A stretch of 64,000 nucleotides of DNA. It comes from a virus (taxonomy: Duplodnaviria; Heunggongvirae; Uroviricota; Caudoviricetes). Made by a program: the position numbers and the translations under genes. Every line of letters starts with the position of its first letter. Position 1 is the stretch's first letter. The stretch lies in IMG/VR virus record IMGVR_UViG_2585427708_000005. One strand, written 5' to 3'. Of the stretch, positions 386 through 53,077 are shown piece after piece. Below the pieces are notes generated by a model that searched no databases, was not told the origin of the DNA, and worked only from the letters and a program-made list of their open reading frames with translations.

Positions 386-1870
386 TCATTCATTAAGCCA
401 TGCCAGAGCTTCATCAACCTGCGCTTCGTCTTCGACGCTAAGCACTTCATCCTGGGGAACATAATCAGCCAGCATAGCGAAACAATATGTATCCCAATGG
501 TCTGGTGAGTGCAGGTTGAGTTTTTTCTTCATATCCTCCTTACTCATCACTTTCCATTGACCTGCGGAGTTAATCCCTACAGGGATTTTCGACGCTTCCT
601 CAATAGTTTCATTACCCTTATCCAGTCTCATACGACCAGATTTTACGGCCTCTGCGGCTTGAACGTTGGCATAAGCACGTTTATCAAAGTACAGGCTCTT
701 ATCTTCACGGCTATGCATCTTTTTACCCCAGCGTATACGCTGTACGGTAATACCATAATACTCGTACATCAGATCCGCCGTTGCTTTACCCAGGCCATCG
801 CCGTCTATCGCTATGGTGATATTTGGGAATCGCTCAGGATTACATTCTGCGAAAATTTTGGCGGCAAGCTGCGTTTCTGTAACGTCTGTGTATTCCAGCA
901 TTCGATAGTTGATTACACGGCGTTTATTTCGCTGGCCGGACACCATCATGATATTGATAACGGACTTATCCCGTCCCGTACCACCAGCAACGTCCACACA
1001 TGCAAGCCAGCCCCATCCTTTTGCAATCTTGACTTTCCGCCGCGTTGCACGTTCAACCTCATCACGTCCAAGAAGGAAGCCATCCTGTGATTTAGGGAAT
1101 AGGCCGCGTACCTTAATCATGTACATAGGGTTATCGCGCCCGCCGTACTCCGCCAGCTTCATTTTGATAAATGCTGGCGTTACCAGCGGTGATTCCTCAC
1201 TGTTAAGCGTGATCGCCGTATAAACGCCATCAGGGTTACCAGGACGCTTGGCCAGTTTATGGTGAGTATCGTAGAAATAGCCGCTTGGGCGTGTAGGCTG
1301 TGACAGTAATAAGATGCGGTTATCCTGTCCGGTAAGAGCACCGGTGATGATACCGAAAGCTCTATCACTGACACCGGAGGCTTCATCGATAATATACAGA
1401 AGATGATCTGCGTGTTCACCGGCGAGAGCTTCTTCACTTCCCAGACGAAAGCCCTTCGGTACTACAGTCCATACACCTTTACCAGTAACCTCATAGAAAG
1501 CGGTTTCTGTCAGAACAAAATAATCAGCAAGCCATGGGAAACGGCTGGTGGCAGTAGCCCAGTTTATCTTGATGTACTTGAATATACCGGTCATTACCTG
1601 CTGAATTTTGTTCGCAACGATAATGGCTCGGGCACCGGGATACATGATTATGAACAACATGATCATGATAGAAGTCATGTCTGATTTCCCGGTACCGTGA
1701 CCAGACGAAACAGATGTCTTGCTACCCTGTTCCTGCACAGACTCAATAATCAGATCCTGCTGCCAGGTAGGTGTTTTGCCGAACAAAACATCAGCGGCCG
1801 CAATCCAGTCATAACGATATAGCGCCACCAGCTCGCGCCAACGTGGATCCGTTACGCAACTTCTGGCCAT
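386..1870 (-). CDS. pacB: Terminase large subunit (PacB-like)
   Basis: 494-aa ORF directly downstream of and abutting the small-subunit gene; N-terminal ATPase-like region; position and size match P1 PacB as recalled. Confidence 0.85.
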
Positions 1871-3063
1871 TAATCATCATCCCCGTATAGCTTGCGGGTA
1901 ACTTCTTCGTCTTCCTCCTCGTCTTCGTCCAGGTCTTGTTCCAGCCATGGGTCGTTTGATGCACCTTCAGTATCAACATCTCCATAACCGCCTGTATCAA
2001 CGATATCGGCGATTTCTTCCCTACGCTGCTCAATCCACAATGCGGCATCCGCGCGGCGGTTGGCGGCCCGTTCTCGCGCAACTTTGTCCAGATCTTCAAG
2101 AGAAGGGCCACCGACGGCTGTTTGCCTTTCCTCATCATCGGTATTGGTCTTAGGAGCACGCAGATCGGCTTTGATTTGCTCCAGCATCAGGGGCGGCACT
2201 TTCCCGCCATGCGCCTCGATGAATTCAGCTGCTTCCAGCACTGACCAGTTATTTTCACGCTTTCGTTCGTATGCCAGCTTAACAATGCCAGCTTGCCCCA
2301 TAGATAAAGCGTGCTTTTCCGCCTCCCGGCTTTCTTTTCGATAGTTATTCCGGATGCTGTAAATGGTGTTGATCAGGCTGCTTATCTGCGCGGAACAGCT
2401 GTTTAGCATGCTCGCGATACGATATTCAGGCGGAGTCCCTTCATCATCGTCTTTTTGCTGATCGCGCATTTCCTGCACCAGACGAATACACGTATCCCTG
2501 GCGTTCTCCAGCATAAGGAGATGAGAAAGAGACTTTTCCAGAAGAGTGGTTTCCAGAACATCGGCCCCGGACCGACGCAACATAGCGCGCGCGGCCTTCC
2601 GCGCTTCAACGTTATCTATCAGGTAATCGCCAGCTTCGAATTCAAAGCGTTCACCATCATCATCCAGGGTGTCGCGTTCCAGGCGATCACGTAAGGTCCG
2701 GTGGGCGCGGGTGATCACGTCATGATCATCAGAACGATCATTTATGCGCTTATTTTGGCGCTTCGCATTCTCGACTGCGGCACTGACAACGGCATTAACC
2801 CTTTGTTTTTCCGCTATTTCAGCCGCAATGTGATTACCTGCATGTTGATCATTAGAGTGATCAATGATCATGCTTTTTAGTGGCTTCCTGACTGGCTTAT
2901 TTGGCTTGCGGCTGTCCGCTGTCCTGGTGTCTTCTTTGAAGGCACGGAGATAACGACGTGCAGTATTAGGGTTAAGATTAAACTCGGCGGCATACTGTGC
3001 GATGGTGTAACCACCATCTCGCGCCAGGCGAGCAAAATTCTTCTTGTGATCGTCCCAGGTCAC
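1870..3063 (-). CDS. pacA: Terminase small subunit (PacA-like), contains the pac site
   Basis: 397-aa ORF with N-terminal HTH-like region and acidic C-terminus; TGATCA hexamer clusters inside the gene; abuts pacB. Confidence 0.8.
2711..2870. other. pac packaging site: two clusters of TGATCA(G) hexamers (Dam GATC sites) about 130 bp apart
   Basis: tgatca at 2712, 2723, (c)gatca 2736 and tgatca at 2846, 2858, 2865; matches the known P1 pac architecture of hexamer repeats flanking the cleavage region. Confidence 0.7.
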
Positions 3064-3106
3064 TTATGCTTCCTTTCGTAAAAACTCTTTTTGACGCGAG
3101 GGTAAC

Positions 3107-3115
3107 GAAAGTCAC
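3107..3115 (-). promoter_or_regulatory. Candidate late-promoter box GTGACTTTC (minus-strand sense) upstream of pacA
   Basis: Same 9-mer recurs upstream of the head gene at 42374..42382; about 50 nt upstream of the pacA start. Confidence 0.35.
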
Positions 3116-3148
3116 ATGTCAAAAGGCCCGGAACGGGCAAGCAATCAA

Positions 3149-3601
3149 TCAGATACGTGCGGATGTGGCATTACCGTAATGACGGTGCTGACGGGCCACC
3201 TTATTGAAAAGTTGACGCGCCATTACCCAAGGCTGGTGCTCCCGGCGTTCCTTTTCGTCCTGCGTCATATAGAGTTCGTTCTGGAGTTTTTCATCAAACC
3301 GGCGCGGAGCGCGGCTACGGCGAAAGAATTCAGGATTCAGAGAGTGGATCTGAAATCTACGTGGGCGTGTACTGTCATCAATCAAAACAGACGAATACTT
3401 AGACACAGCGATAGCCTTTAAGCGCAGATAAACATCGCGCTTATCGACATCCAGATGCGGGTATTCCTTTTCAAGAATTGCTGCGAGTTCTTTCGCTGAT
3501 AGAAGAGATTTAGTGCGGATCATGTAATCCGCAATCTCGTACGATGTTATTCGTGAGTGATTTATTTCCATGAAGTGGCGTCCCTGCCAGTTAAGTAACA
3601 T
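3149..3601 (-). CDS. lpa: Late promoter activator (Lpa-like, gene 10)
   Basis: 150-aa ORF between the pdc/doc module and pacA, preceded by an operator-like site; assignment by position and size only. Confidence 0.5.
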   Translation of the reverse strand: MLLNWQGRHFMEINHSRITSYEIADYMIRTKSLLSAKELAAILEKEYPHLDVDKRDVYLRLKAIAVSKYSSVLIDDSTRPRRFQIHSLNPEFFRRSRAPRRFDEKLQNELYMTQDEKERREHQPWVMARQLFNKVARQHRHYGNATSARI

Positions 3602-3671
3602 CCTGTCACCTACTGATTAGCCCATGTCAACTAATCAACGTGGAATATAATACCCTCGATTAAAGAAATAG

Positions 3672-3688
3672 CAATACATTAGAGCAAT
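3672..3688 (-). promoter_or_regulatory. C1 operator-like site (14/17)
   Basis: caatacattagagcaat just upstream of the lpa start. Confidence 0.45.
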
Positions 3689-3689
3689 T

Positions 3690-4733
3690 TTATCTAACGC
3701 TCGACGAGTGACTTGTGATAGCGCCGACTCCAAGCGCGTAATCAAAGAACAATCGTTGATGCATCGCCAGCCTGCCGTGCGTCTTCTCCCAATTATCGCG
3801 GTCACGCTCAATATCACGCTGGCATGACTGGCACAGAGGAATTGCGTAAATGTCATGCGCGCATAATCGACTATGACGAACGATATAAGGCGTAATGCGA
3901 GCGCCAGCTCCCGCAGCTCCACATCCACAGCACGGACGGGAAGCAACAAAGTCCATGTACTCGGGTAATTTTAGCGATTGCAGTTTTGGTATTTTGAAAT
4001 GCGCCATGCCAGGGTCGGAGTCAACATCCACAGGGCATACTTTTGCACGCATCGGCGCGGCGCGTTCTTCCATCATCTGAACATATGCTGTAGCACGATC
4101 GTCGTACGGGCGAATATCCGCCTCTTTCAAAGGTCCGCTATCCTGCGGAGCAGCCTTCATCTTATTTATTGATATGCGGCAAACTTCTTCCGGCATCAGG
4201 TGCATCATGTTGCGCATGAAAGCCCACCAGCACAGTTCCTGAATACTTAAATCATGGCCATCTGAAAGCCCCATTTCCTGACGGGCGACATCCAGTATCC
4301 AGTTAACGCGATTATTATGCAGCGTTTCTTTCAGCTCATTAAAACCACGCATCCGGTAATGGTTATCGTGATGCCAGCACAACAACACCGCGCTATTGTC
4401 TCGTTCTGCGTGGACAATATGGTTGTCACACCAGCTACGATCTGCGGCCTGGCATTGCCCCTCTTTCCTGCGCAACCACGCCACCAGCGCGTCAATTCCA
4501 CCAATACGGCGAAACAGTTCATCGCTGTTAAAAAACGGCTGCAACGCCTCATTTGTTGCCATAGTTTGCTCGGAAACAACGAGGCCGTCGTCCATGTGCT
4601 CGATTAACTCACGCGGCACCGGCTCCATAATAAATTTACGGCCAGCCTCCACCAGCTTTCTGACTTCCTGATCCACTTTGAATGTGGCGACGCCAAGCTC
4701 TTTTTGTACAAAGGGAGTAATTACGGCTTTCAC
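3690..4733 (-). CDS. Hypothetical protein with HNH-like Cys/His motifs (DUF968-like; P1 pdcB position)
   Basis: 347-aa ORF; CDNHIVH...LLCWHHDNH and C-terminal CxxC motifs; downstream of doc. Confidence 0.6.
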
Positions 4734-4760
4734 ATCACACCTTTCATCACTGATTGGGCT

Positions 4761-4940
4761 TTATCTGCTGCCCGGCATTCTCTGTTTAAGCACAACCATT
4801 TCCTGACGGCATAACACAGCAATAGCAGTCCTGGCTCTAATTTGCTTACCAACCAGGTATTGCTTTACCTCGCGGCGACTCACGCCATCAAGAAGCATCT
4901 TTAACGCTTCACGGGACAATTTGTTGTATTTGCGTGCCAT
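4761..4940 (-). CDS. Small basic putative DNA-binding protein (P1 pdcA position); start taken at internal Met
   Basis: 59-aa reading MARKYNKLSREALKMLLDG...; lies directly after the doc stop. Confidence 0.4.
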   Translation of the reverse strand: MARKYNKLSREALKMLLDGVSRREVKQYLVGKQIRARTAIAVLCRQEMVVLKQRMPGSR

Positions 4941-4944
4941 TAAT

Positions 4945-5325
4945 CTACTCCGCAGAACCATACAATCTACGTAACGTGGCGGCGACAGAAGATACAGATA
5001 TCTCGCCAGTCGCAGCCCCTACGGTAAGGTCTGCCAGTTCAGGTGAATCAAATACCTGCACCCCGTTACGGCGTAGAAATAACAGCGCACTGTTTAGCGC
5101 GGTACGCTTATTGGCATCATTGAATATATGCCCTCTCGCCGTAGCCACCAGGTAGGTGGCGGAGACTTCGAAAAGGTCGGTGATCTCTTCGTAGGCAACT
5201 CTGGCCTGAACTCTCCCGATAATGGCCTCTGCCCTACCCGGATCTGACATTCCCGGCAGGCCGCCGTAGCGGCTTATATTCGCATCATGAAGCGCAATAA
5301 GTTCTTCCGGTGATATATGCCTCAT
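4945..5325 (-). CDS. doc: Doc toxin (Fic/Doc family, death on curing)
   Basis: 126-aa ORF with Fic/Doc-type motif region ([12 protein letters not shown]); overlaps the phd stop; matches P1 Doc as recalled. Confidence 0.9.
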
Positions 5326-5552
5326 TATCGGTTAACCAGTTCCTTGTTGGTGGAGTCCAGGGTGTCAAACAGGGATGCAAATTCAGCATCCAGCGCCGCT
5401 TTTTTGTAGGCTTCGAAAGTAGCCTTGCTGACAATTACTGCTGGCTCACGGCCTCTGCGGGTGATTTCAACCTCTTCCCCGGCTTCAACATTGTTGAGCA
5501 CTTCAGAAAGGTTGCCACGCGCGGTACGGAAGTTAATGGATTGCATAAACAC
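5325..5552 (-). CDS. phd: Phd antitoxin (Phd/YefM family)
   Basis: About 73-aa ORF (true start probably the third codon) immediately upstream of and overlapping doc. Confidence 0.9.
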
Positions 5553-5618
5553 CTCGTGTACTCGTTATGTGTACACAATTATAAACTTCACAGGCATAAA
5601 GCACCAGCACTTTGCAGC

Positions 5619-6008
5619 TTAAATCACCGGACAATCATCAAATTCCCCACTTCGGGCATCATTGATGACATGAGTGATCACACCAAAAACAGCATTACTA
5701 CCCGTGTAACCATCGTCATCTACTGGTAACGCCTCTTTCTTCCCGGTGCTTAAATCCTCCAGGTGCTGGCGCGGATACTTCCTGTATCTCTTTATGCGAT
5801 ATTCACCCTCCATAGCGCACACAAGCAGAGAACCATCAACCGGAGTAAGCGAGGAATCAACCACCAGCAAAGCACCCTGCAATATTCCCTCACGGTGATG
5901 GCTATCAGCTGCCCGCATGAAGTAGGTTGCTGATGGATGTCTAATTATCTGCTGATCAAGAGAAATTCGGCTTTCAACATAATCCGCCGCAGGAGAAGGG
6001 AAACCCAT
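5619..6008 (-). CDS. humD: UmuD'-like S24 peptidase (HumD-like SOS mutagenesis protein)
   Basis: 129 aa with strong similarity to the UmuD C-terminal domain (GFPSPAADYVE...HPSATYF); LexA box upstream. Confidence 0.85.
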   Translation of the reverse strand: MGFPSPAADYVESRISLDQQIIRHPSATYFMRAADSHHREGILQGALLVVDSSLTPVDGSLLVCAMEGEYRIKRYRKYPRQHLEDLSTGKKEALPVDDDGYTGSNAVFGVITHVINDARSGEFDDCPVI

Positions 6009-6028
6009 AGCGTTTTACCTCAAAAATA

Positions 6029-6044
6029 CTGTTTATCTGTACAG
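6029..6044. promoter_or_regulatory. LexA box (CTGT-N8-ACAG)
   Basis: ctgtttatctgtacag about 20 bp upstream of the humD start. Confidence 0.6.
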
Positions 6045-6182
6045 TATACATTAAAGAAGCACCTTTGGTGCAAACGCGTTATGTACATCAACCACCGCTG
6101 ATGATTTTTGTGCGCTTTGCTACTATTCATCACCGCGGGATCAGCGTAACCTCGTTGCCAATCAGTTAATAAGGAATTAGCT

Positions 6183-6518
6183 ATGCCTAATCGCATTCCT
6201 CTCGATCCTGTATTGCCCAAAAATTTTGACTGCACTCCTAACGAGAAACGCTCTAAAGCTCAGCTGGACGCCTGGTGGGACCATCCCTATGGGGTTACAG
6301 AACATGACGGGAAAATTGTTGTTTATTGTCTGAATGGTGGCGCGTGGGACCGTCCATCCGTGCTTGGTTTGGCAAATAACTATGATGAAGCCTGTGAACT
6401 TGCCGAAAGACAGCAGGCAAGCTGGGTAAAAACACGGTCTGAACCGACATTCATGTTTTCAAAAGAACCGCCATTTATACTGGCGAGGATGCCGCAGCGA
6501 CCGGATCATCAACAATAA
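6183..6518 (+). CDS. Hypothetical protein, divergent from humD
   Basis: 111-aa ORF with RBS-like aggaattagct upstream; no recognisable domain. Confidence 0.45.
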   Translation: MPNRIPLDPVLPKNFDCTPNEKRSKAQLDAWWDHPYGVTEHDGKIVVYCLNGGAWDRPSVLGLANNYDEACELAERQQASWVKTRSEPTFMFSKEPPFILARMPQRPDHQQ

Positions 6519-6548
6519 ATTGTTGCTGAATTTTCCTCAAGGGATGAG

Positions 6549-6764
6549 ATGAATCTCTTCTCATTAAAGCAGGAAGAAAGGGATCGCGTCGAAGTGTCTC
6601 CAACTCTCGACCACAACCGGATGAACCTGGCCCAACTCGCCTGGTACAGCAAAGAATTAGAGATGTCTATTGCCCGACTTGAAAACGAAAAAGCCGCTAT
6701 CCAAGCCCAGCATGAAGTAGTTCTGAACCGGATTAGAGAAATGCAAAACGATAATAGAGGCTAA
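6549..6764 (+). CDS. Hypothetical coiled-coil protein
   Basis: 71-aa ORF followed by a hairpin. Confidence 0.35.
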   Translation: MNLFSLKQEERDRVEVSPTLDHNRMNLAQLAWYSKELEMSIARLENEKAAIQAQHEVVLNRIREMQNDNRG

Positions 6765-6790
6765 ATCGAGGTAGAAAACACATTGTTTAA

Positions 6791-6807
6791 GGCCACTAAT
6801 TGTGGCC
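6791..6807. terminator. Hairpin between convergent genes (weak or bidirectional terminator)
   Basis: ggccac-taatt-gtggcc stem-loop between 6549..6764(+) and 6825..7376(-); no strong T-run. Confidence 0.35.
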
Positions 6808-6824
6808 TCAAAGGGGAGAGATGC

Positions 6825-7376
6825 TTATTGGCTATGGCTAAAAATCAAATGAGACACTTCATGTGGTTGTAGCTCGTCAAGATCCGGGGCCACAAAACCT
6901 TTTCCGAAAGACTTCACAAGTAATTCACCAGCCGCATCATTGTCACCTATTACACGAAAGTCATACGGCAGCATCGCAAGTTGACGGCGTAATCCTGCGG
7001 AGAAAGTCGAACCTAACAGCGCCCACGAATTGCCGCCCGCGTTGTGTACAGCTGCGCTCTTAAAAATAGACTCAGTTATCCATATTGGGCCATCTTTTAA
7101 AGGAAGATAGGTTCCCCAAAGTAACTGTCTGCCATGTGATCGCGTGAAATACCGGGCCATCTTCGGATTGCTATGCTGCTTAGGAGCACCTGGTCTATAT
7201 GTCTGATACCCAGCCAACATCCCATCAAACCTGTATAGAGGGAATGTAACTACTCCTTCACTTTCATCGATCCACTGTCTATATGGGTGTATATCATGGC
7301 GGTAGTTACGAGTTAGCAAATGAGCTTCCAGCTTTCCAAATTTTGTCATATTCCGTTCTTCCTGCATACTGGGCAT
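6825..7376 (-). CDS. Toprim-domain protein (primase-like catalytic core)
   Basis: 183 aa with conserved Glu (ITESIFKSAA) and DxD (VIGDNDAAGE) Toprim signatures. Confidence 0.55.
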   Translation of the reverse strand: MPSMQEERNMTKFGKLEAHLLTRNYRHDIHPYRQWIDESEGVVTFPLYRFDGMLAGYQTYRPGAPKQHSNPKMARYFTRSHGRQLLWGTYLPLKDGPIWITESIFKSAAVHNAGGNSWALLGSTFSAGLRRQLAMLPYDFRVIGDNDAAGELLVKSFGKGFVAPDLDELQPHEVSHLIFSHSQ

Positions 7377-7651
7377 GTGTTCTCTGTGAAATATGGGAAA
7401 CTATTATCCAGCTCATCTACCCACTGTTTATGGTCGAAGCAGAAAAATATCTCCCACGGCATTCCATATTCTTCCATCCATAGGCGGATCTGCATTTCTA
7501 TTGGAATCGGCGGTATTGCAGACACCATATCAACAGGATAACAGTTCAGACGACGTTCCAGTTCTTCTACTCTCTTCTGGAGATGAAATATCCGATCCAG
7601 ATGCACACGCCGCTCCCGTGCCATTTTAAAATAAAGCTCGCCGGTCATCAT
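7346..7651 (-). CDS. Hypothetical coiled-coil protein with C-terminal Cys/His motif (paralog A)
   Basis: 101 aa; C-terminal W-E-I-F-C-x-DH-x2-W-x-DELD-x-SFPYF-x-E-x3-CPxCR shared with the next gene. Confidence 0.5.
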   Translation of the reverse strand: MMTGELYFKMARERRVHLDRIFHLQKRVEELERRLNCYPVDMVSAIPPIPIEMQIRLWMEEYGMPWEIFFCFDHKQWVDELDNSFPYFTENTCPVCRKNGI

Positions 7652-8016
7652 TAACTCCTACATTCAGGGCAAGAGTTCCCTTCCGCAAAATAGGGGAAAC
7701 TGCTATCAAGCTCATCACACCATCTGCGATGGTCGTAGCACCAAAACGCCTCCCACGGTGCACGGAAATACTTCATCCACCAGGACACTCGATCAGGTAT
7801 ATCTGCTGGTGGCAGCTCTTCTGGCAATAATTTGCCTGATAATTCCCTTTCCGCCCGCGCCAGCATTCCTTTTAGACTCGCATTCTCTTTTTCAAGAATA
7901 TCTATGCGCGCCTGTAACTCAGCTTTCGTTGGCATGGTCCGCCTCATGCTTTTCAGCCACCAGCGGCAATAAAGCCCTGGCCATCTTATGAACCAACAGA
8001 GCATCGATAATGCCAA
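7651..8016 (-). CDS. Hypothetical coiled-coil protein with C-terminal Cys/His motif (paralog B)
   Basis: 121-aa ORF (real start probably internal) ending WEAFWCYDHRRWCDELDSSFPYFAEGNSCPECRS. Confidence 0.5.
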   Translation of the reverse strand: MALSMLCWFIRWPGLYCRWWLKSMRRTMPTKAELQARIDILEKENASLKGMLARAERELSGKLLPEELPPADIPDRVSWWMKYFRAPWEAFWCYDHRRWCDELDSSFPYFAEGNSCPECRS

Positions 8017-8608
8017 GCGTATGCCCCGGCTTAATGTTTAATGCCGCCTCAAGGTGACACCTTTCCAGGTCACTTTTCTCGGCTTGTTTATGATGGTCTG
8101 GCGTAATAACGTCGCCCAAAACACGGCTAATTCTTTCTCGTAATTGCTGGGTGCCTGCACACTTGATCGCTGTATCGTGGAGACGGTTAACCAGTTCGCG
8201 ATAAACATGCGGCTTAATGCGGATACGTTCACCTGTGACGCCCTTTCCTGGCGCTGGCACCGAACTATCCGGAATATCCGGAATATCCGGATAGTTGCCA
8301 GCCTCGTAAGCTACCCGCAGCCAGTGCATGAATGTTTCAGTGGACACACAACCACAGTCCACATCGATTTTTCCGCGTTGCTGTTCCAGCCACTGCTCAA
8401 AATTCAATCTACACGTATTACTTTCATGTTGCTCTTTTTGTCTCAAGGCCAGCACCTGTTGGGCCAGTTCCAGAACGATACCGGGTGACGCTAACCTCTC
8501 AAATTCCAATAAATAGTTTGCGTCAGGATGACAAGTAGCCTCGCCTGCAAAAAATACCAATTGCTGTAAGTATGCTGTCGTTAGAGTAGTCATTTCTTTT
8601 TGCGCCAT
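7919..8608 (-). CDS. Hypothetical protein
   Basis: 229-aa ORF; contains a DIPDIP tandem repeat encoded by ccggaatat repeats. Confidence 0.5.
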   Translation of the reverse strand: MAQKEMTTLTTAYLQQLVFFAGEATCHPDANYLLEFERLASPGIVLELAQQVLALRQKEQHESNTCRLNFEQWLEQQRGKIDVDCGCVSTETFMHWLRVAYEAGNYPDIPDIPDSSVPAPGKGVTGERIRIKPHVYRELVNRLHDTAIKCAGTQQLRERISRVLGDVITPDHHKQAEKSDLERCHLEAALNIKPGHTLGIIDALLVHKMARALLPLVAEKHEADHANES

Positions 8609-14527: not shown

Positions 14528-14544
14528 AGATTTATTAGAGCAAT
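14528..14544 (-). promoter_or_regulatory. C1 operator-like site (16/17)
   Basis: agatttattagagcaat upstream of 13768..14349. Confidence 0.6.
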
Positions 14545-15050
14545 CATTGTTGATGAAGAAGCGCATTTTCATACTCCCTGACCATTAACGTAAGTACGCC
14601 GTGACTCCTGAAAACACGCGCCACTTCAATCTTATCTTCCAGCGCGAACGCAATTTTACTTAGACCAATTTTCTTCAGGAGATCAATCTTTGCTGGACCG
14701 TCATTTCTGTCATCGGTGGCAGGACGCATAGATAGCAAAGGCTCAGCCCCATTTGTTACGTGCTTACGCAACCAGGCTCGTGTTTTATCCCTGGCTATCT
14801 CACAGCGCCCGGTTACAAACCAGAGGGTGTAAATGCCGGACAACTGGCGCACCATATCAATAACTGGAGTGATGGGAGCATCAGTGTCACAGGCAAGGTT
14901 AAACTCGTTCCAGTGCTCTGTTAATGCACCTTTGCCAGGTGGTGGAAGTAAATGCAGCCTGTCTTCCGTTGCCTCTGATATCGTCCCATCAATATCTACT
15001 ATGACGATGTACGGACGTTCCTGGTGTGCGTGTTTATTGAAAATACTCAA
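14544..15050 (-). CDS. HAD-superfamily phosphatase-like protein
   Basis: 168 aa; N-terminal DxDGT motif (IVIVDIDGTISE). Confidence 0.6.
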   Translation of the reverse strand: MSIFNKHAHQERPYIVIVDIDGTISEATEDRLHLLPPPGKGALTEHWNEFNLACDTDAPITPVIDMVRQLSGIYTLWFVTGRCEIARDKTRAWLRKHVTNGAEPLLSMRPATDDRNDGPAKIDLLKKIGLSKIAFALEDKIEVARVFRSHGVLTLMVREYENALLHQQ

Positions 15051-15122
15051 ATACCCTCCTCATTGGACGAAAAAAATGCTGGTGGGCGCACTCCACCAGC
15101 ATTAAAGGTGACACTGTAACTA

Positions 15123-16385
15123 TCAGCGAACGTAAATAGTGCCGCCGTTCTCTTTTTCCCATGCATCGCTACGTGCATAGCAAACATCGAGAAGTCTTCT
15201 TGCCGCAGTTTCCTCTAAACCCAATTCGACAACCAACTGCTCATGACGGCGGGTAACCACATCAAACAGGGTATGCAGCCCTTTAGTTGCCAGATCATCA
15301 ATGAATTCCGGTTCGAACGGCAGCTCTGCATCTGCTAACATAACCTCTTGCGCCCACTCAACTCGACGGACCAGTTCCGGGCGGCGGCTTTCCATCTCTT
15401 TACAGATCAATTCATGGAAGAACTCTACCCAACCTTCCGGCTGGAACTCGCGGAAAATTGCCAACGGCTGGAAGTTTGGCATCAACCATTCGTTGATTCG
15501 GATATCAATGGCATAGCCCATGTCGCAGCAGAACTGATAAGCAAAGTCCAGCTTAGAAACGATATAAGGACGCTCGTTATTGAACTCTTTAGGCGATGAG
15601 ATCCCATAAGCCAGGAGGCGCGGGAAGAAGGAGATTTGCCCTAACGTCGGATGAAGTTTGCTTGCAGGGAAACGGCGCTCAGTAATGCCATACATTTCCT
15701 TCTTGAGCGTCGCAAATTTGGCATTCTCATTAACCAGCGCGGTAACCTCTGCTTTTTTATTAGCAAATGCCACGCGCGCTTCGCTTGCATCTTTAATAGT
15801 TTTTTTGAGCTGTTGGTTAAGGTCGGCGACCTGCTTACGCAGTTCCTGTCGCTCGCTTTTAGCTTTGTTATAGCGTTTCTCAAGGTTAAAAGGATCAAGT
15901 TTCATGATCTCTTTATATTGAGATTTTAGCGTTGAAATCTGTGAGTTCCGCAGTTCAACCATCGCGGTCATTTCATTGAGTTTTGTTTCCAGCTCAATGC
16001 TTATACGTTCGGCATTATCAGCACGCTGGTTGGCGTCATGCGTCGCATCTTCGATCGCGTCCTGTTGCTGGCGTTTCAAATGTTCAATTTCCAGCTGAAG
16101 CTCTTCAATTTCTTTACCCTTCAGACCGAGATCCAACTGCATATTTTCAGCTGCATCTACCAGGGAGTTATGGCTATCAGCTTCTGCGTTATAAACATCA
16201 ATAAGCTGTGCGTGAAGCATCTCCGCTGACTGAACCGCATTATCAAAAAAACGTGCTGTGAGGTCATCACAACTAACGCGGCGTTGCGCGGCCCGGATGT
16301 TCTGGATAATGGCCGGGATACCGGCATTCAGGACATCAGGGATAGATACATTTTCGATTGATTGGTTTTGTGCTGAAGTGCTCAT
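15123..16385 (-). CDS. Hypothetical coiled-coil protein with conserved C-terminal domain
   Basis: 420 aa; long coiled-coil N-half; first gene after the dual operator region. Confidence 0.55.
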   Translation of the reverse strand: MSTSAQNQSIENVSIPDVLNAGIPAIIQNIRAAQRRVSCDDLTARFFDNAVQSAEMLHAQLIDVYNAEADSHNSLVDAAENMQLDLGLKGKEIEELQLEIEHLKRQQQDAIEDATHDANQRADNAERISIELETKLNEMTAMVELRNSQISTLKSQYKEIMKLDPFNLEKRYNKAKSERQELRKQVADLNQQLKKTIKDASEARVAFANKKAEVTALVNENAKFATLKKEMYGITERRFPASKLHPTLGQISFFPRLLAYGISSPKEFNNERPYIVSKLDFAYQFCCDMGYAIDIRINEWLMPNFQPLAIFREFQPEGWVEFFHELICKEMESRRPELVRRVEWAQEVMLADAELPFEPEFIDDLATKGLHTLFDVVTRRHEQLVVELGLEETAARRLLDVCYARSDAWEKENGGTIYVR

Positions 16386-16386
16386 T

Positions 16387-16605
16387 TCAAAGTTCCGTAT
16401 TAGCTTGTGCTTCGGTCATTTTTCCTAAGTATGAAGGAGGAAGGACTACGCAATTTGTATCCAGTCCCTCACCTATGGCAGCCTGTAAAATTCTGGCTAA
16501 GGTGAGTCTCTTGTTGCGATACCTGGTGATGACATGCCTGATACCGCCGGTCGGCGTAACAAAGGCGATCAGCCAGTAGTGATATTTCCGTCGGAATGGC
16601 CACAT
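16387..16605 (-). CDS. Small hypothetical protein (start uncertain; the longer ORF overlaps operator sites)
   Basis: The track ORF 16387..16662 spans the operators; an internal Met gives about 72 aa. Confidence 0.25.
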   Translation of the reverse strand: MWPFRRKYHYWLIAFVTPTGGIRHVITRYRNKRLTLARILQAAIGEGLDTNCVVLPPSYLGKMTEAQANTEL

Positions 16606-16619
16606 AGTGCACCTTATAG

Positions 16620-16636
16620 ATTGCTCTAATAAAAAA
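16620..16636 (+). promoter_or_regulatory. C1 operator-like site (14/17, forward)
   Basis: attgctctaataaaaaa; paired with the opposed site at 16669. Confidence 0.5.
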
Positions 16637-16668
16637 CGTGATGAGTGTACATCACGTTTCAAAAATAT

Positions 16669-16685
16669 GGAATTATTAGAGCAAT
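16669..16685 (-). promoter_or_regulatory. C1 operator-like site (14/17, reverse)
   Basis: ggaattattagagcaat; the two sites flank the palindrome acgtgatgagtgtacatcacgt. Confidence 0.5.
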
Positions 16686-16686
16686 A

Positions 16687-17388
16687 TTATTCTGATTCCT
16701 GCTCAAAAAACGAGCTAATGAGGGGAATCCAATCCTCTGACACTTCGCGAGGTCGCGGTTTGCCGTGGAAAAAAATTATTCGGCAGTCCTTTGGTAATGC
16801 CCCATTCCCCCTGGAGTAACGCGCGCTCGCATATTTTGAACCTGGTTCCACAACATCGGCCTTGTAACTTACAAACCATCCTGGATACAGATCCTGAAAT
16901 GCTGGTGTATCATCGCCCATAACCTTCCGTAAGAACCCCTGATCACCCCAGCACTCAGTAGTGACACAACGAGAAATCCAACCTTCCGGATCTTGCCAGA
17001 ATGAACTCCAGATATGCGCTTTTACACTATTTGGTATCCACAGGGCACCGCTGCCACGATATTGTGGATGGTAAAAATCCCTAAGCATGGTGAAGCTGGT
17101 TGGTGGATCCTCAAGGATTGGGCGTATATCACCGGCAATAACCGTGTCCAAATCCAGATAGAACAGATCATCGGTTATATCCGGTCGGAACAACTCGATT
17201 TTCGCCCACCAGCCACGGCACTTTTGCCACTGGTTGATCAATGGGACAACTTTGACGCCAGGTACATGTAAACGCTTCAGGTCTGTCAGGCAAATAATTT
17301 CATAGCCTTTTGGCAGTTGATTAACCAGCCACTGCACATCGGAAGCGTTATAGTCACCACCAGAGCGAAAAACTAAAGCAATCTTCAT
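16687..17388 (-). CDS. Putative GT-A-like glycosyltransferase or nucleotide-sugar-binding protein
   Basis: 233 aa; Rossmann-like N-terminus ([11 protein letters not shown]) and a DxD-like YLDLD motif; weak assignment. Confidence 0.35.
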
Positions 17389-18077
17389 GCTGCACCATCA
17401 CCTTTCACTTTCATCAATGTCAGGTTTCCGCAAAATACGGCACCAGTGTCGATATACTGCTGATTCCAGAATGTCTTCGGGCTTTTCACCGGAGTGTGAC
17501 CAAAGATAAAACGATCTGCGCCCGAAATTTCGCCACCAATATCATCCATCGAATCACTGATACGCTCGCGCGCCCAGACAACGTTGAAAAGCGGCACCTC
17601 CTTACCGAATTGGTATTCATTATCCGGATAGTCGGCATGGGCTATAACGATAGTTTCTTGCCCGGTGTTCAACTCAATGATATAGGGCAGACGCTTTACC
17701 AGCTCCACCAGCGCCCAGGCTAATATTTCCTGATCAGTGTCCAGCATGAAGAACCATTGTCCGCCATTCATTAGCCAGTTATTCACGTTGCCATCTGGAC
17801 TTAACGCATCAATCATCAGCCGCTCATGGTTCCCCATCACTGCCCTGAACCAGGGCATCTGCAATAGTTCCAGACATTCGACATTTTCAGTACCGCGATC
17901 GATAAGGTCGCCGACCGATATCAGTAAATCCTGCGCCTGGTCAAAATCCACACGATGGAGTTCGGACATCAGTCTGGTGTAGCAACCATGCAGATCACCA
18001 ACAACCCAGACATTCCTGTATTTGGTACCGTCGATACGGTGATAAATTGTTGGTGCCATCATGTATTCTTCAGCCAT
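17385..18077 (-). CDS. ppp: Ser/Thr protein phosphatase (lambda PPase-like metallophosphatase)
   Basis: GDLHG, GDLIDRG and GNHE motifs; strong similarity to lambda phosphatase; true start probably the internal Met near 18059. Confidence 0.85.
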
Positions 18078-18685
18078 TCTTTAAGAGTCATCTGCGGAAT
18101 ACTTCCCATTTTCCCGCATGAAACAACGTCAATCTGTTCACGCGCAGACTGGAATAACAAAGGCAGGTGACTTAGATTTTTTGGCGTGCCGCCGGAGTGA
18201 ACGCGTGGTTCTTGTGTAGCGTCAACGCCCACCAGGGCGACATGTTTGAATCCTATATGGAAAGCCAGGTTCAGAGCGCCATATGCACTATTGCCGCTGG
18301 CAATTTCATTCTCATCTTCGCAAAGTCCGAAATGTGCGGACCAGCGCCACGCCCACCACTCGGGAGAATTCGTATTTTTTGGCTCCATGCCGCGTTCAGC
18401 CACACGACGGAAGCACAGAACGCCGTCTCTGACCTCACGTTCTTTAACATCGGGTAGCGCCATGCAATAACAAACACCACGGCGACGGCGGCCACGACCA
18501 ACGCGCCGCATATTGTCTGACGATGGATCAAGTGTGAAAAAATAAGAAGCGCGGTTAAGCCAGTCGATGGCCCCATTGACCGCTATAATCGGCACTCCGC
18601 GCGGCGCAACAAAGTTTGCGGCGCTTGGGCCACTGCCGACGATAATAACGCGATCACTGCCTCTAAATTTATTCTTGGGAAACAT
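18059..18685 (-). CDS. Rossmann-fold GSGPS-motif protein (DUF115/MptE-like or Maf/sialyltransferase-like), paralog 1
   Basis: 208 aa; [10 protein letters not shown]...IIAVNGA and [12 protein letters not shown]...ALVGVD motifs. Confidence 0.45.
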
Positions 18686-19245
18686 TGAATTGCACTGCTC
18701 CTACTTGCATTCAAAATATGTAAATCTGCGTGTTTTTTGCGGGTATCCAGGAACTGCTGTTGCCATTTTGAAATAGATACCTGCGTTGGATTCCGTAGTG
18801 CTTGAGGGTGCGCCCCATGCCAATGAAGGCCGTTTTGCAGAGAACAGTCATAGCCGACTAATACAACTACTTCAGCCCCTGATTCAGCCGCCAGACTGAT
18901 AGCCTGCGCGCCGCTATTTACCCCTTCCGCCGGTCCACAATATCGCCTGTACTCCAACGAAAATGATTTCGCCGCTGCCAGGTTGGCTGTCACTTTGCGG
19001 AACCTCCCTCCCGGTATGGTGGAACCGTATTGCTTCCACCATGACAAATCACCGGCGTATAAGGCATAAATGTCATCGAACATCTGCCAGGAATTGTTAA
19101 CCGCGATGATTGAACAGCCAGTTTTTTCTATAGCAGCACAGTCCTCACGAGTGAGTGACGGACCGCTACCGACACAAAAAACAGTCCTAGTCGCCCTGGG
19201 TGGTATGTTCATTCTCAACTGCAAATTCAGCCTCCAGGCGAGCAT
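18583..19245 (-). CDS. Rossmann-fold GSGPS-motif protein, paralog 2
   Basis: 220 aa; FCVGSGPSL...IIAVNNS and GVNSGAQAISLA...VLVGYD motifs; overlaps paralog 1 by about 100 nt in another frame. Confidence 0.45.
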   Translation of the reverse strand: MLAWRLNLQLRMNIPPRATRTVFCVGSGPSLTREDCAAIEKTGCSIIAVNNSWQMFDDIYALYAGDLSWWKQYGSTIPGGRFRKVTANLAAAKSFSLEYRRYCGPAEGVNSGAQAISLAAESGAEVVVLVGYDCSLQNGLHWHGAHPQALRNPTQVSISKWQQQFLDTRKKHADLHILNASRSSAIQCFPRINLEAVIALLSSAVAQAPQTLLRRAECRL

Positions 19246-19408
19246 TCATTTCAGCGATTACAGGGTCCACTACAGCATCTGTTTCCTGTTCATTACGCGG
19301 CATGACCGATGCCAGCGACTCATAATTAACCTTGGATGACACGATTATTCTCCCGATGTTGATGTGCACTACCATAAAGAGACAATATGCACTAATTAAT
19401 TTATTATT

Positions 19409-51390: not shown

Positions 51391-51407
51391 AAATTTATTA
51401 GAGCAAA
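51391..51407 (-). promoter_or_regulatory. C1 operator-like site (16/17) upstream of kilA-repL
   Basis: aaatttattagagcaaa. Confidence 0.65.
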
Positions 51408-53060: not shown

Positions 53061-53077
53061 AAATTTATTAGAGCATT
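53061..53077 (-). promoter_or_regulatory. C1 operator-like site (16/17) at the immI promoter region
   Basis: aaatttattagagcatt upstream of the leftward icd-ant leader. Confidence 0.6.

Follow-up and report, generated by a model that had tools for sequence, protein, structure and literature searches.

The pmgO-pmgP-pmgQ cassette of P1-type phages, a candidate glycan-assembly system found in phages of Gram-negative bacteria

Gene content and C1 operators of the locus

The window, i.e., the whole 64-kb stretch of DNA analysed, belongs to a P1-like phage and is 98% identical to P1. Its 14544-19245 stretch shares 98-99% identity with phages P1, P7, RCS47, and SJ46, in which the same genes are annotated; sequence comparison identifies it as the pmgO-pmgP-ppp-pmgQ-pmgR-pmgS-pap region known from P1-type phages, and all of these genes (pap, pmgS, pmgR, pmgQ, ppp, pmgP, and pmgO) are encoded on the minus strand. 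The small ORF pmgN (19187..19375, minus strand), seen only in P1-like loci, opens the C1-controlled pmgN-pmgO-pmgP-ppp-pmgQ unit. It is followed on the same strand by pmgO (18583..19245; 220 aa ORF) and pmgP (18059..18685; 208 aa), which overlap by 103 nt (18583-18685), and by ppp (17385..18077) and pmgQ (16687..17388; 233 aa). As pmgO homologs begin near residue 12-20, Met12 (window position 19212) may be the true start of this gene. The remaining minus-strand genes are pmgR (16387..16605), a head-completion gene in P1, pmgS (15123..16385), which encodes a coiled-coil protein and is confined to P1-like loci, and pap (14544..15050). The five genes singled out in a preliminary description of this DNA (pmgO, pmgP, ppp, pmgQ, and pap) all lie on the minus strand where it had placed them; pmgR and pmgS, located between pmgQ and pap, had been left out of it.

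A search with the C1 operator consensus returned 11 matches versus 0.37 expected. Operator Op83 (Oppp; 19386..19402, plus strand; TATGCACTAATTAATTT), placed 5' of pmgN by moving the P1 annotation by an offset of +10545, has four mismatches to the consensus. Op86b (16620-16636, plus strand) and Op86a (16669-16685, minus strand), both located by the consensus search and the P1 annotation, divide the pmgQ unit from pmgR-pmgS-pap (16620..16685). The end boundary of the latter unit is formed by Op88 (OpmgT; 14528..14544, minus strand), which is annotated in P1 and has a single mismatch to the consensus.

Fold and kinship of the encoded enzymes

PmgO and PmgP, with the motifs VGSGPS...SIIAVNNS and VGSGPS...PIIAVNGA, respectively, are predicted to be the first and second DUF115/Maf-like glycosyltransferase-fold proteins of the locus. 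BLASTP aligns the two only over the N-terminal motif (E 0.003); their family profiles align over 162 columns (probability 97.7%, E 1.6e-12), and their structure models have identical top fold matches. Judged from profiles and models, their relationship exceeds chance and they are distant paralogs, in agreement with the tandem, partly overlapping GSGPS paralogs noticed earlier. The best structural match of both models is Maf, a glycosyltransferase, and the PmgO profile lines up with the CMP-binding motifs of Cst-II (GNGPSL and TSG...GID), so that the profile searches and structure models bear out the initial guess of a DUF115/MptE/Maf/sialyltransferase-like fold. The Maf flagellin glycosyltransferases (e.g., from Magnetospirillum, PDB ID: 5mu5) are, however, larger (~600 aa), having additional domains at both termini, and share 16-19% sequence identity with PmgO and PmgP, which would constitute minimal (~200 aa), bare catalytic domains of the Maf/sialyltransferase/DUF115 fold; besides, the phage cassettes have no nearby flagellin or CMP-pseudaminic/legionaminic acid synthesis genes. 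Sequence similarity to the GT42 sialyltransferases Cst-I and Cst-II (PDB IDs: 2p56 and 1ro7) is non-significant (E about 0.1). To our knowledge, E. coli K-12, a standard host of P1, makes no CMP-sialic acid, and therefore the label "sialyltransferase" is probably wrong about the sugar.

PmgQ (motif FYLDLDT) matches the PHROG_1962 glycosyltransferase family (1e-127). The single PmgQ sequence, being too divergent, yields no match to the Pfam GT8 model; the PmgQ family profile searched against the PDB matches Skp1 alpha-galactosyltransferase (6mw5, E 1.1e-6), a GT8 enzyme (5gvv, E 0.0014), and glycogenin (E 0.012). These profile matches to solved GT8 enzymes identify what had been described as a YLDLD-motif protein as a DxD (GT-A) glycosyltransferase of the GT8 type. 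Its invariant residues are D79-L-D81, G148-D-Q, and H208-G-.-P-.-P213, and the motifs DxD, GDQ, and H..G..(K/R)P are shared with the retaining GT8 enzymes (glycogenin, 6mw5, 5gvv, and WaaO/WaaR/WaaJ), although PmgQ is short and divergent and its relation to E. coli WaaO is weak. PmgQ would thus act as a metal-dependent, retaining enzyme.

Ppp carries the motifs GDLHG, GDLIDRG, and GNHE of a lambda NinI-type Ser/Thr metallophosphatase and is 64% identical to lambda protein phosphatase; the matches to Pfam Metallophos (1.1e-15), NCBIfam PRK11439 (5.2e-80), and a NinI-like PHROG confirm its earlier assignment as a lambda-type phosphatase. Pap (motif VIVDIDGT) is a stand-alone HAD phosphatase, as had been proposed, and more precisely one of the polynucleotide-kinase/phosphatase type: it matches Pfam HAD_PNKP (3e-11; 44.1 bits versus a cutoff of 27.6) and a polynucleotide kinase PHROG (5.7e-56), and has the DxDxT motif without a kinase domain. 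The fold assignments of the proteins at the locus are held with high confidence.

Distribution and genomic context of the cassette

PmgO, PmgP, and PmgQ occur together in ~40 loci; the phages concerned are unrelated to each other and infect Gram-negative bacteria. PmgP is the most conserved member, PmgQ is present in all loci with sufficient flanking sequence, and between about two thirds and three quarters of the non-P1 loci have PmgO. The hosts, all Gram-negative, comprise Enterobacterales, Pseudomonas, Ochrobactrum, Brevundimonas, Commensalibacter, Zhongshania, Methylophilaceae, Xanthomonas/Stenotrophomonas, and one Bacteroidota genome. Natural fusions join O to P (P0051), P to Q (P0224 and P0287), Q to P (P0306), Q and P to a methyltransferase (P0270), a methyltransferase to P (P0309), and, in phage XacN1, a TylF methyltransferase to Q. 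The slot between P and Q often holds a sugar O-methyltransferase or an additional glycosyltransferase; this slot or the cassette neighbourhood contains SAM methyltransferases, sugar O-methyltransferases of the FkbM, TylF, and CmcI types, and further GT-A and GT-B glycosyltransferases. Very likely, O, P, and Q constitute a single functional cassette, which is widespread across phages and has never been characterised before.

The cassette is usually part of a late or structural operon, in many cases immediately 3' of the major capsid gene. In 13 loci it separates the major capsid gene from the head-tail connector genes and is co-oriented with both, in ~10 it is within or adjoins the lysis-terminase late region, and in P1 it is directly upstream of pmgR. 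In XacN1, a 1088-aa PKD-domain protein is encoded downstream of it. In the chromosomes of Pseudescherichia, genes for an inverse-autotransporter adhesin and further Big_1 proteins are intermingled with O, P, and Q, while Serratia plymuthica has O, Big_1, Big_1, and lipoxygenase genes on one strand in an operon-like arrangement; one chromosomal copy is an orphan without informative neighbours.

Proposed function and alternatives

The best overall explanation, and still a tentative one, is a three-enzyme glycan-assembly cassette with a protein (virion) acceptor. Synthesis of a glycan rather than pyrophosphokinase activity is probable; the assignment of the acceptor to a protein or the virion is the least secure step and is put forward with caution. 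PmgO, PmgP, and PmgQ might act in succession in the cytoplasm on one acceptor, yielding a short glycan that in many relatives could then be O-methylated or lengthened by the enzyme from the variable P-Q slot. The donor of PmgQ would be a UDP-hexose. Glycosyltransferases of the Maf/sialyltransferase/DUF115 fold use CMP-activated keto-sugar acids; as genes for sugar-nucleotide synthesis are missing from the cassette and all named hosts are Gram-negative, we infer host CMP-Kdo as a donor for PmgO and PmgP, a rather doubtful choice given their weak resemblance to the Kdo transferase WaaZ.

The solved structures nearest to PmgQ by sequence, as well as Maf in the case of PmgO and PmgP, are protein-glycosylating enzymes. 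The late or structural setting of most phage copies, the PKD-domain protein gene following the XacN1 cassette, and the Big_1 neighbours of the chromosomal copies also favour a protein acceptor. By analogy with mycobacteriophages, the phage acceptor could be a virion protein that is exposed on the surface and produced late in infection, for example the capsid; in bacterial chromosomes, Ig-like (Big_1) adhesins might take this role. Since the carrier phages have unrelated capsid types (HK97-like, lambda-like, SU10/P22-like, Mu-like, P1, and jumbo), one specific capsid acceptor common to all of them is unlikely. The genes pmgO, pmgP, and pmgQ are dispensable for plaque formation, which fits a function in decoration, not assembly. 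The P1 cassette unit has a C1-repressed sigma-70 promoter, not a late promoter alone; this, the orphan chromosomal copy, and the location of the cassette away from structural genes in four lytic or jumbo phages count against a protein or virion acceptor. The paper on the P1 virion proteome makes no mention of glycosylation, and a test of Ser/Thr-ending capsid C-termini was non-discriminating.

Alternatively, the cassette could modify a cell-envelope glycolipid, either the core of LPS, the receptor of P1, or a different lipid-linked glycan. PmgO and PmgP would then add Kdo-like sugars, as WaaZ does, and PmgQ an alpha-hexose, like WaaO, WaaR, and WaaJ, leading to receptor masking, superinfection exclusion, or fewer progeny lost on cell debris. 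A universal acceptor (Kdo2-lipid A or core) would suit unrelated virions and many Gram-negative hosts, LPS glycans are commonly O-methylated, and morons classically occupy the lysis-terminase and Q-antiterminator positions. There are also faint precomputed Pfam WaaZ_KDO_III matches on the O-P fusion, partial hhalign matches to E. coli WaaZ, and a PmgQ-WaaO alignment spanning the DxD and KPW motifs, but these are weak (probability 47% and 38% for WaaZ, and 15% for WaaO). Known LPS-conversion modules (gtrABC-type) adjoin integrase or immunity genes, whereas this cassette is inside, and co-oriented with, late structural operons; its chromosomal copies are beside adhesin genes and not waa or O-antigen clusters. 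As the P1 cassette is repressed by C1 in lysogens, and LPS made in the final minutes of the lytic cycle would presumably be unable to displace surface LPS, modification of a glycolipid appears unlikely. Still less credible is a single pathway of all five genes, in which the phosphatases would act on a phosphorylated intermediate, either a sugar or a nucleotide, that the transferases use or make. The genes are close together in P1, ppp occupies the exact slot of the tailoring enzymes of other cassettes, and Kdo synthesis uses a HAD phosphatase, KdsC; however, profile searches gave no KdsC-type match for Pap, a member of a polynucleotide 3'-phosphatase family, and the close relationship of Ppp to the lambda enzyme argues in the same direction. 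Moreover, ppp fills the P-Q slot only in P1/P7/SJ46-type loci, pap is found only in some P1-like loci and in a separate operator-bounded unit, and neither phosphatase gene is present in any non-P1 cassette or in five more distantly related P1-like phage-plasmids, which have O-P-Q, while phage D6 keeps ppp in another context without O, P, and Q. Thus, of the five-gene module proposed in the preliminary description, O/P/Q stands as a conserved, sometimes fused, glycosylation cassette, which ppp and pap accompany only in P1-like elements; quite likely, both are independent accessory genes outside the cassette that happen to adjoin it in P1, and pmgS is likewise outside it.

Two further possibilities are highly improbable. 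Glycosylation of phage DNA or nucleotides as an anti-restriction hypermodification could be envisaged because DNA-modifying phage glycosyltransferases are well known, and because in four lytic or jumbo phages the genes near the cassette are not structural ones but those for ribonucleotide reductase (three phages, within a few kb) or DNA ligase (EP_H11). Yet no hydroxymethyl-pyrimidine pathway adjoins the cassette in P1, HK97-like, and lambdoid carriers, antirestriction activity is unchanged in knockouts, and the chromosomal copies occur with adhesins. P1 DNA is cut and cloned as a matter of routine, methylation is its only known modification, and we know of no DUF115- or GT8-type enzyme that glycosylates DNA. 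Neither this role nor one in sugar-nucleotide synthesis, both considered initially, found support. Similarly, PmgO and PmgP could be MptE- or thiamin-pyrophosphokinase-like, their diphosphorylated small molecule being transferred or consumed by PmgQ, as the matching Pfam family (PF01973) is named MptE-like after the 6-hydroxymethyl-dihydropterin pyrophosphokinase (PDB ID: 8sd5). The top structural match to Maf and the Cst-II CMP-binding motifs argue against this; the cassette has no pterin, folate, or thiamin context, its fusions and neighbours being glycosyltransferases and sugar methyltransferases, and there would be no obvious reason for two paralogous pyrophosphokinases within a single cassette.

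For the preferred reading, protein glycosylation, two functional parallels are available. According to PMC12363180 and PMC12619734, which cite Freeman et al. 2023, mycobacteriophages Che8, Corndog, and Myrna glycosylate the C-termini of capsid and tail-tube subunits by means of their own glycosyltransferases, which are dispensable for growth. These enzymes belong to other families and their hosts are of the Gram-positive type; besides, the mycobacteriophage glycans were shown directly, whereas that of the P1-type cassette is a prediction. The O/P/Q-Big_1 islands resemble Gram-negative adhesin glycosylation systems in gene adjacency, the link here being genomic. In Aah/AIDA-I, TibC/TibA, and HMW1C/HMW1, the genes of cytoplasmic glycosyltransferases adjoin that of the large surface adhesin they modify; Aah, TibC, and HMW1C are heptosyl- or hexosyltransferases from families other than those of PmgO, PmgP, and PmgQ.

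Gene order and transcription units

The 4.7-kb stretch that contains the pmgO, pmgP, and pmgQ cassette (14544-19245) is 98-99% identical to bacteriophages P1, P7, RCS47, and SJ46. It corresponds to positions 79592-84291 of P1, a coordinate of the P1 locus L001 being converted to that of the window by adding 10545. All genes of the stretch lie on the minus strand and follow each other in the order of transcription pmgN (19187-19375, transcribed first), pmgO (18583-19245, 220 aa), pmgP (18059-18685, 208 aa), ppp (17385-18077), pmgQ (16687-17388), pmgR (16387-16605), pmgS (15123-16385), and pap (14544-15050, 168 aa). The five genes named in the preliminary description, as well as the motifs quoted there, were all found in the translations of this stretch.

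Operators of the P1 repressor C1 split the stretch into units: Op83 (19386-19402) precedes the unit from pmgN to pmgQ, Op86a and Op86b (16620-16685) precede pmgR, pmgS, and pap, and Op88 (14528-14544) follows pap. Consequently, pap falls outside the transcription unit of the PmgO/PmgP paralogs. Across the window, the 17-bp operator consensus gave 11 matches versus 0.37 expected; additional ones are located at 366-382, 3672-3688, 30744-30771 (an overlapping divergent pair), 35300-35316, 51391-51407, and 53061-53077. Read-through into the P1 cassette may also come from a late promoter that lies upstream of pmgL.

According to published single knock-outs (PMC9024508) and knock-downs, neither plaque formation nor antirestriction requires pmgO, pmgP, or pmgQ. 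When pmgN was knocked down by CRISPRi, plating fell about 70-fold and the gene was scored as essential (PMC10695390, table), while deletion of pmgN has no effect, nor do the knock-downs of pmgO, pmgP, ppp, and pmgQ (CRISPRi results from the same table). Essential by deletion, pmgR is non-essential by CRISPRi (PMC10695390); its deletion leaves heads and tails unjoined. Polar or dosage effects may be behind these discrepancies.

Several gene boundaries deserve comment. The mechanical ORF of pmgR (16387-16662) has a TTG start and 91 aa versus 72 aa in the P1 annotation, and the shorter version is supported by the PHROG match, which spans residues 20-91 only. Homologs of PmgO begin near residue 12-20 of the P1 ORF, the first 15 residues of which have pLDDT values below 50, and conservation is poor in the C-terminal 16 residues, which give rise to the 103-nt overlap with pmgP. 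Only about 80% of window positions 1-25000 can be aligned to any single P1-like record, and parts of this segment are matched by records of about 500 phages, among which Stx-converting and lambdoid ones are numerous; the window thus contains accessory genes of lambdoid type that reference P1 lacks, such as EaA and an HNH endonuclease.

Predicted folds of the cassette proteins and phosphatases

By BLASTP, PmgO and PmgP resemble each other only in the N-terminal GSGPS...IIAVN stretch (E 0.003). Comparison of the family profiles (alignment A3 with 32 sequences for PmgO and A2 with 35 for PmgP) extends the similarity end to end over 162 columns (hhalign probability 97.7%, E 1.6e-12); the O-P fusion P0051 was left out, as with it the comparison is dominated by the fusion. 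The paralogy proposed in the preliminary description is borne out by these profiles, from which the two proteins are judged to be genuine but old paralogs. In a MAFFT alignment (A5), PmgO homologs were placed onto the PmgP-like half of P0051.

AlphaFold models of the two proteins, built separately, are confident (pLDDT 85.8 for PmgO and 94.7 for PmgP) and have a Rossmann-like fold in common with the solved structures of Maf, MptE, and Cst-I. The best structure matches of the two models are the Maf flagellin glycosyltransferase (PDB ID: 5mu5, 13.8 and 13.5), the archaeal pyrophosphokinase MptE (PDB ID: 8sd5, 11.0 and 12.6), and the Campylobacter sialyltransferase Cst-I (PDB ID: 2p56, 10.3 and 10.7), in agreement with the likeness to DUF115/MptE and Maf/sialyltransferase enzymes noticed earlier. 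They are followed by SteA, thiamin pyrophosphokinases, and animal sialyltransferases; in the viral fold library, the matches are only uncharacterised or 'MptE-like' phage proteins. Both PmgP (21.1 bits) and PmgO (23.4 bits) score under the threshold of Pfam PF01973 (MptE-like, 34.6 bits), which is passed by their relatives P0051 (44.6 bits) and P0259 (44.1 bits).

Both family alignments have an invariant nucleotide-binding loop, G-x-G-P-S, near the N-terminus and, further along the chain, an invariant (S/N)-S-G ... G-x-D motif; His141 and His143 in PmgO and His173 in PmgP are invariant as well. In PDB searches, the PmgO profile aligns weakly to the two CMP-binding motifs of Cst-II, its GT42 matches (Cst-I/II, E 0.1-0.6) being confined to two short motifs; neither the PmgP profile nor the single PmgO sequence gave significant matches, and the former had no GT42 match. 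Membership in WaaZ/GT73 (PF27901) was considered and rejected: hhalign probabilities against E. coli WaaZ are 47% for PmgP and 38% for PmgO, covering the C-terminal half only, and the precomputed Pfam matches to this Kdo transferase family are faint and restricted to the O-P fusion. None of the PADLOC anti-phage defence models matched PmgO, PmgP, PmgQ, Ppp, or Pap. Maf proteins comprise about 600 aa, with domains flanking the catalytic one, whereas PmgO and PmgP have 220 and 208 aa, about 160 of which align out of 632 in Maf 5mu5; moreover, none of about 40 cassette loci examined contains the flagellin or CMP-nonulosonic acid synthesis genes of a Maf-type linkage. By analogy, the cassette appears to resemble known protein-glycosylation systems in its working, yet it is placed outside the Maf, GT42, and WaaZ families as defined.

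As a single sequence, PmgQ has no Pfam match. Its profile retrieves from the PDB the Skp1 alpha-galactosyltransferase (PDB ID: 6mw5, E 1.1e-6), a pneumococcal GT8 enzyme (PDB ID: 5gvv, E 0.0014), and glycogenin (E 0.012). Among 29 sequences, the DxD motif (Asp79-Leu80-Asp81) is invariant, together with Gly148, Asp149, His208, Gly209, Pro211, and Pro213, and Gln150 is nearly so; the GDQ and H-G-x-P-x-P motifs align with GDQGLLN and HF.G..KPW of glycogenin. Motifs and profile assign PmgQ as a probable GT8-type glycosyltransferase. All three proteins for which the preliminary description had called for structure prediction or profile searches are predicted to have transferase-type folds, not unrelated ones.

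The two phosphatase assignments also stand, with Pfam scores over the cutoffs. Ppp carries the GDxHG, GDxxDRG, and GNHE motifs (Metallophos, 59.1 bits versus a cutoff of 21.5) and is predicted to be a lambda-type PPP-family metallophosphatase; with NCBIfam PRK11439 it scores 268 bits, under the equivalog cutoff of 326. Pap has a DxDxT motif (DIDGT, residues 19-23) and matches PF25109 (HAD_PNKP, 44.1 bits versus 27.6). There is no kinase domain within its 168 aa and no kinase or ligase partner nearby, and the protein is probably a stand-alone HAD phosphatase of the polynucleotide kinase/3'-phosphatase type. Its P1 label, 'putative acid phosphatase', is corrected here to predicted polynucleotide-type 3'-phosphatase.

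Distribution, fusions, and genomic contexts

HMMs of the three families were run on the ORFs of 19 and later about 45 loci; viral contigs scanned with the PmgP profile of P1 yielded only P1 copies, and the scan was repeated with a non-P1 first sequence. PmgQ occurs together with PmgP in every locus with sufficient flanking DNA, and some two thirds to three quarters of the non-P1 loci also contain PmgO. The gene family is of moderate size (573 clusters at 50% identity). Its hosts include Enterobacterales, Pseudomonas, Ochrobactrum, Brevundimonas, Commensalibacter, Zhongshania, Methylophilaceae, Alloalcanivorax, and a Bacteroidota genome, and the cassette is also found in jumbo phages of Xanthomonas and Stenotrophomonas; the named hosts are Gram-negative without exception. 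Gene order varies (O-P-Q, O-Q-P, Q-P, and P-x-Q-O).

Across the same loci, ppp, pap, pmgS, pmgR, and pmgN are confined to P1-like elements. Five more distant P1-like phage-plasmids have the order pmgM-O-P-Q-pmgR-pmgS, with ppp absent, and in phage D6 ppp is located among lambdoid nin-type genes, with no O, P, or Q. Because the phosphatases are missing from the non-P1 and distant P1-like cassettes, and ppp of D6 occurs apart from the three genes, they are placed outside the conserved unit. The five-gene module initially suggested is accordingly reduced: co-occurrence and fusions support a glycan cassette of O, P, and Q, while ppp and pap, limited to P1-like elements and, for pap, belonging to another transcription unit, are excluded, which corrects the annotation.

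Natural fusions tie PmgO, PmgP, and PmgQ, to judge from their sequences, to one pathway. They comprise O-P (P0051), P-Q (P0224 and P0287), Q-P (P0306), Q-P-SAM methyltransferase (P0270), methyltransferase-P (P0309), and a TylF-type O-methyltransferase joined to Q (ORF373 of phage XacN1). The contents of the slot between P and Q, or just past the cassette, differ by lineage: a SAM methyltransferase occupies it in at least eight loci, and other occupants are FkbM- or CmcI-like sugar O-methyltransferases and a second GT-A or GT-B glycosyltransferase. Only in P1-type loci is ppp the slot gene. The predicted functions of slot genes and fusion partners fit glycan assembly and tailoring.

Neighbouring genes were labelled from precomputed Pfam matches and from PHROG and Pfam scans. 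In 13 loci from about nine lineages, the cassette is part of the head module and on its strand, with the major capsid gene on one side and genes for head-tail connectors, adaptors, or head closure on the other. In about 10 loci it is located in the late lysis-terminase region, either between late antiterminator or lysis genes and the terminase or in a lysis-cassette remnant, and in four others it follows terminase, portal, or Mu-F genes. In P1 it is directly upstream of pmgR. Four cassettes of lytic or jumbo phages lie near ribonucleotide reductase or DNA ligase genes (L101, 8646-10395; L265 from XacN1, 1072-7952; L269, 2460-10377; L264, 1268-8160); in three of these phages ribonucleotide reductase genes are within a few kb, and in phage EP_H11 the gene of an NAD-dependent DNA ligase is nearby. 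This neighbourhood is non-structural and is unexplained by virion glycosylation. In XacN1, a PKD-domain protein adjoins the cassette.

The cassette also occurs in bacterial chromosomes. In five genomes of Pseudescherichia or relatives, O, P, and Q are interspersed with genes for an adhesin (a 1178-aa inverse autotransporter with IAT_beta and seven copies of Big_1) and for two further Big_1 proteins. Serratia plymuthica encodes O, two Big_1 proteins, and a lipoxygenase on one strand, in what reads as an operon, and one chromosomal P-Q pair is an orphan. Several Enterobacterales chromosomes contain a holin (on the opposite strand), PmgQ, PmgP, lysozyme, and in some cases Rz, with no other phage genes nearby (L099, 7274-9604; L270, 8712-11102; L271, 8738-11616); the arrangement looks like a domesticated lysis-region fragment that kept two transferases.

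Candidate acceptors of the proposed glycan

The three enzymes would assemble a short glycan, with PmgQ probably using a UDP-hexose donor. PmgO and PmgP might, more tentatively, use host CMP-Kdo, since glycosyltransferases of the same fold use CMP-keto-sugar acids, the cassette lacks sugar-nucleotide synthesis genes, and all hosts are Gram-negative. The weakest step concerns the acceptor, for which a protein is favoured: in phages one exposed on the virion surface, and in chromosomes an Ig-like adhesin. This preference stems from the cassettes within head modules, those in adhesin islands, the neighbour of the XacN1 cassette with its PKD domain, and the protein-directed action of the closest characterised enzymes. 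Glycosylation of mycobacteriophage virions is reported to shield them from the binding of antibodies (PMC12363180, PMC12619734).

Against a protein acceptor stand the unrelated capsids of the carrier phages, the non-structural context of some cassettes, and the repressor control of the P1 unit, and the main rival is that the cassette modifies the LPS core or another envelope glycolipid, to which the head-module and adhesin-island positions are less easily fitted. Glycosylation of DNA is a minor rival, as is a role of PmgO and PmgP as pterin or thiamin pyrophosphokinases; the latter does not fit the glycosyltransferase and methyltransferase partners. The protein-directed reading in its full form, i.e., that P1 and hundreds of phages of Gram-negative hosts decorate their own virion proteins with sugars from the CMP-Kdo and UDP-hexose of the host through a pair of Maf-like enzymes and a single GT8 enzyme, in many cases joined by a sugar O-methyltransferase, and that bacteria took up the cassette for Ig-like adhesins, is conceivable, though on balance doubtful.

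Short Ser/Thr-rich C-terminal tails, mostly with S or T as the last residue, were observed in HK97-type capsid proteins whose genes immediately precede the cassette (e.g., GSLSES, GNLSGAS, GSLKDGS, SGATGS, PSTGS, LASS, SLTAT, LQPSS, and VASGT, from L004 at 7355-7375, L095 at 7190-7214, L096 at 4600-4628, L102 at 8310-8330, L107, L115, L120, L195, L242, and L254). The P1 capsid protein gp23 ends with ISGDTIDAGDSE (44110-44148). A special tail as a mark of cassette-linked capsids was rejected; such tails are only suggestive, since a large cassette-negative group also ends with GPLTGSGS.

If the full reading were true, the cassette would be the first virion glycosylation system in phages of Gram-negative bacteria, and it would also be the first case in which minimal Maf-like transferases attach a Kdo-type sugar to protein. 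A virion target would extend particle glycosylation beyond mycobacteriophages and bear on immune recognition of therapeutic phages, stability, adsorption, and P1-derived delivery particles; an LPS target would represent a new kind of receptor modification from late operons. Either way, three orphan genes are turned into the testable question of which target is glycosylated.

The genes pmgO, pmgP, and pmgQ were already known and annotated, and their glycosyltransferase-like nature is hinted at in RefSeq and PHROG labels; a literature search for functional studies of them (also as hdmB/C/D, phage DUF115, or virion glycosylation) found none. What appears to be new is the conserved and mobile unit, at times fused, in which two minimal Maf-like enzymes are combined with a GT8 enzyme and a variable slot for tailoring genes, its placement in late/structural operons and adhesin islands, and the apparent exclusion of the P1 phosphatases from it. 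Few phages have been used in genetics as much as P1, and its cassette genes are still named "putative morphogenetic function". RefSeq names are a copied "sialyltransferase" or the misspelt "norphogenetic protein", a typing error for morphogenetic (pmgP of NC_005856 / NC_050152) found in hundreds of entries of PmgP and PmgO homologs.
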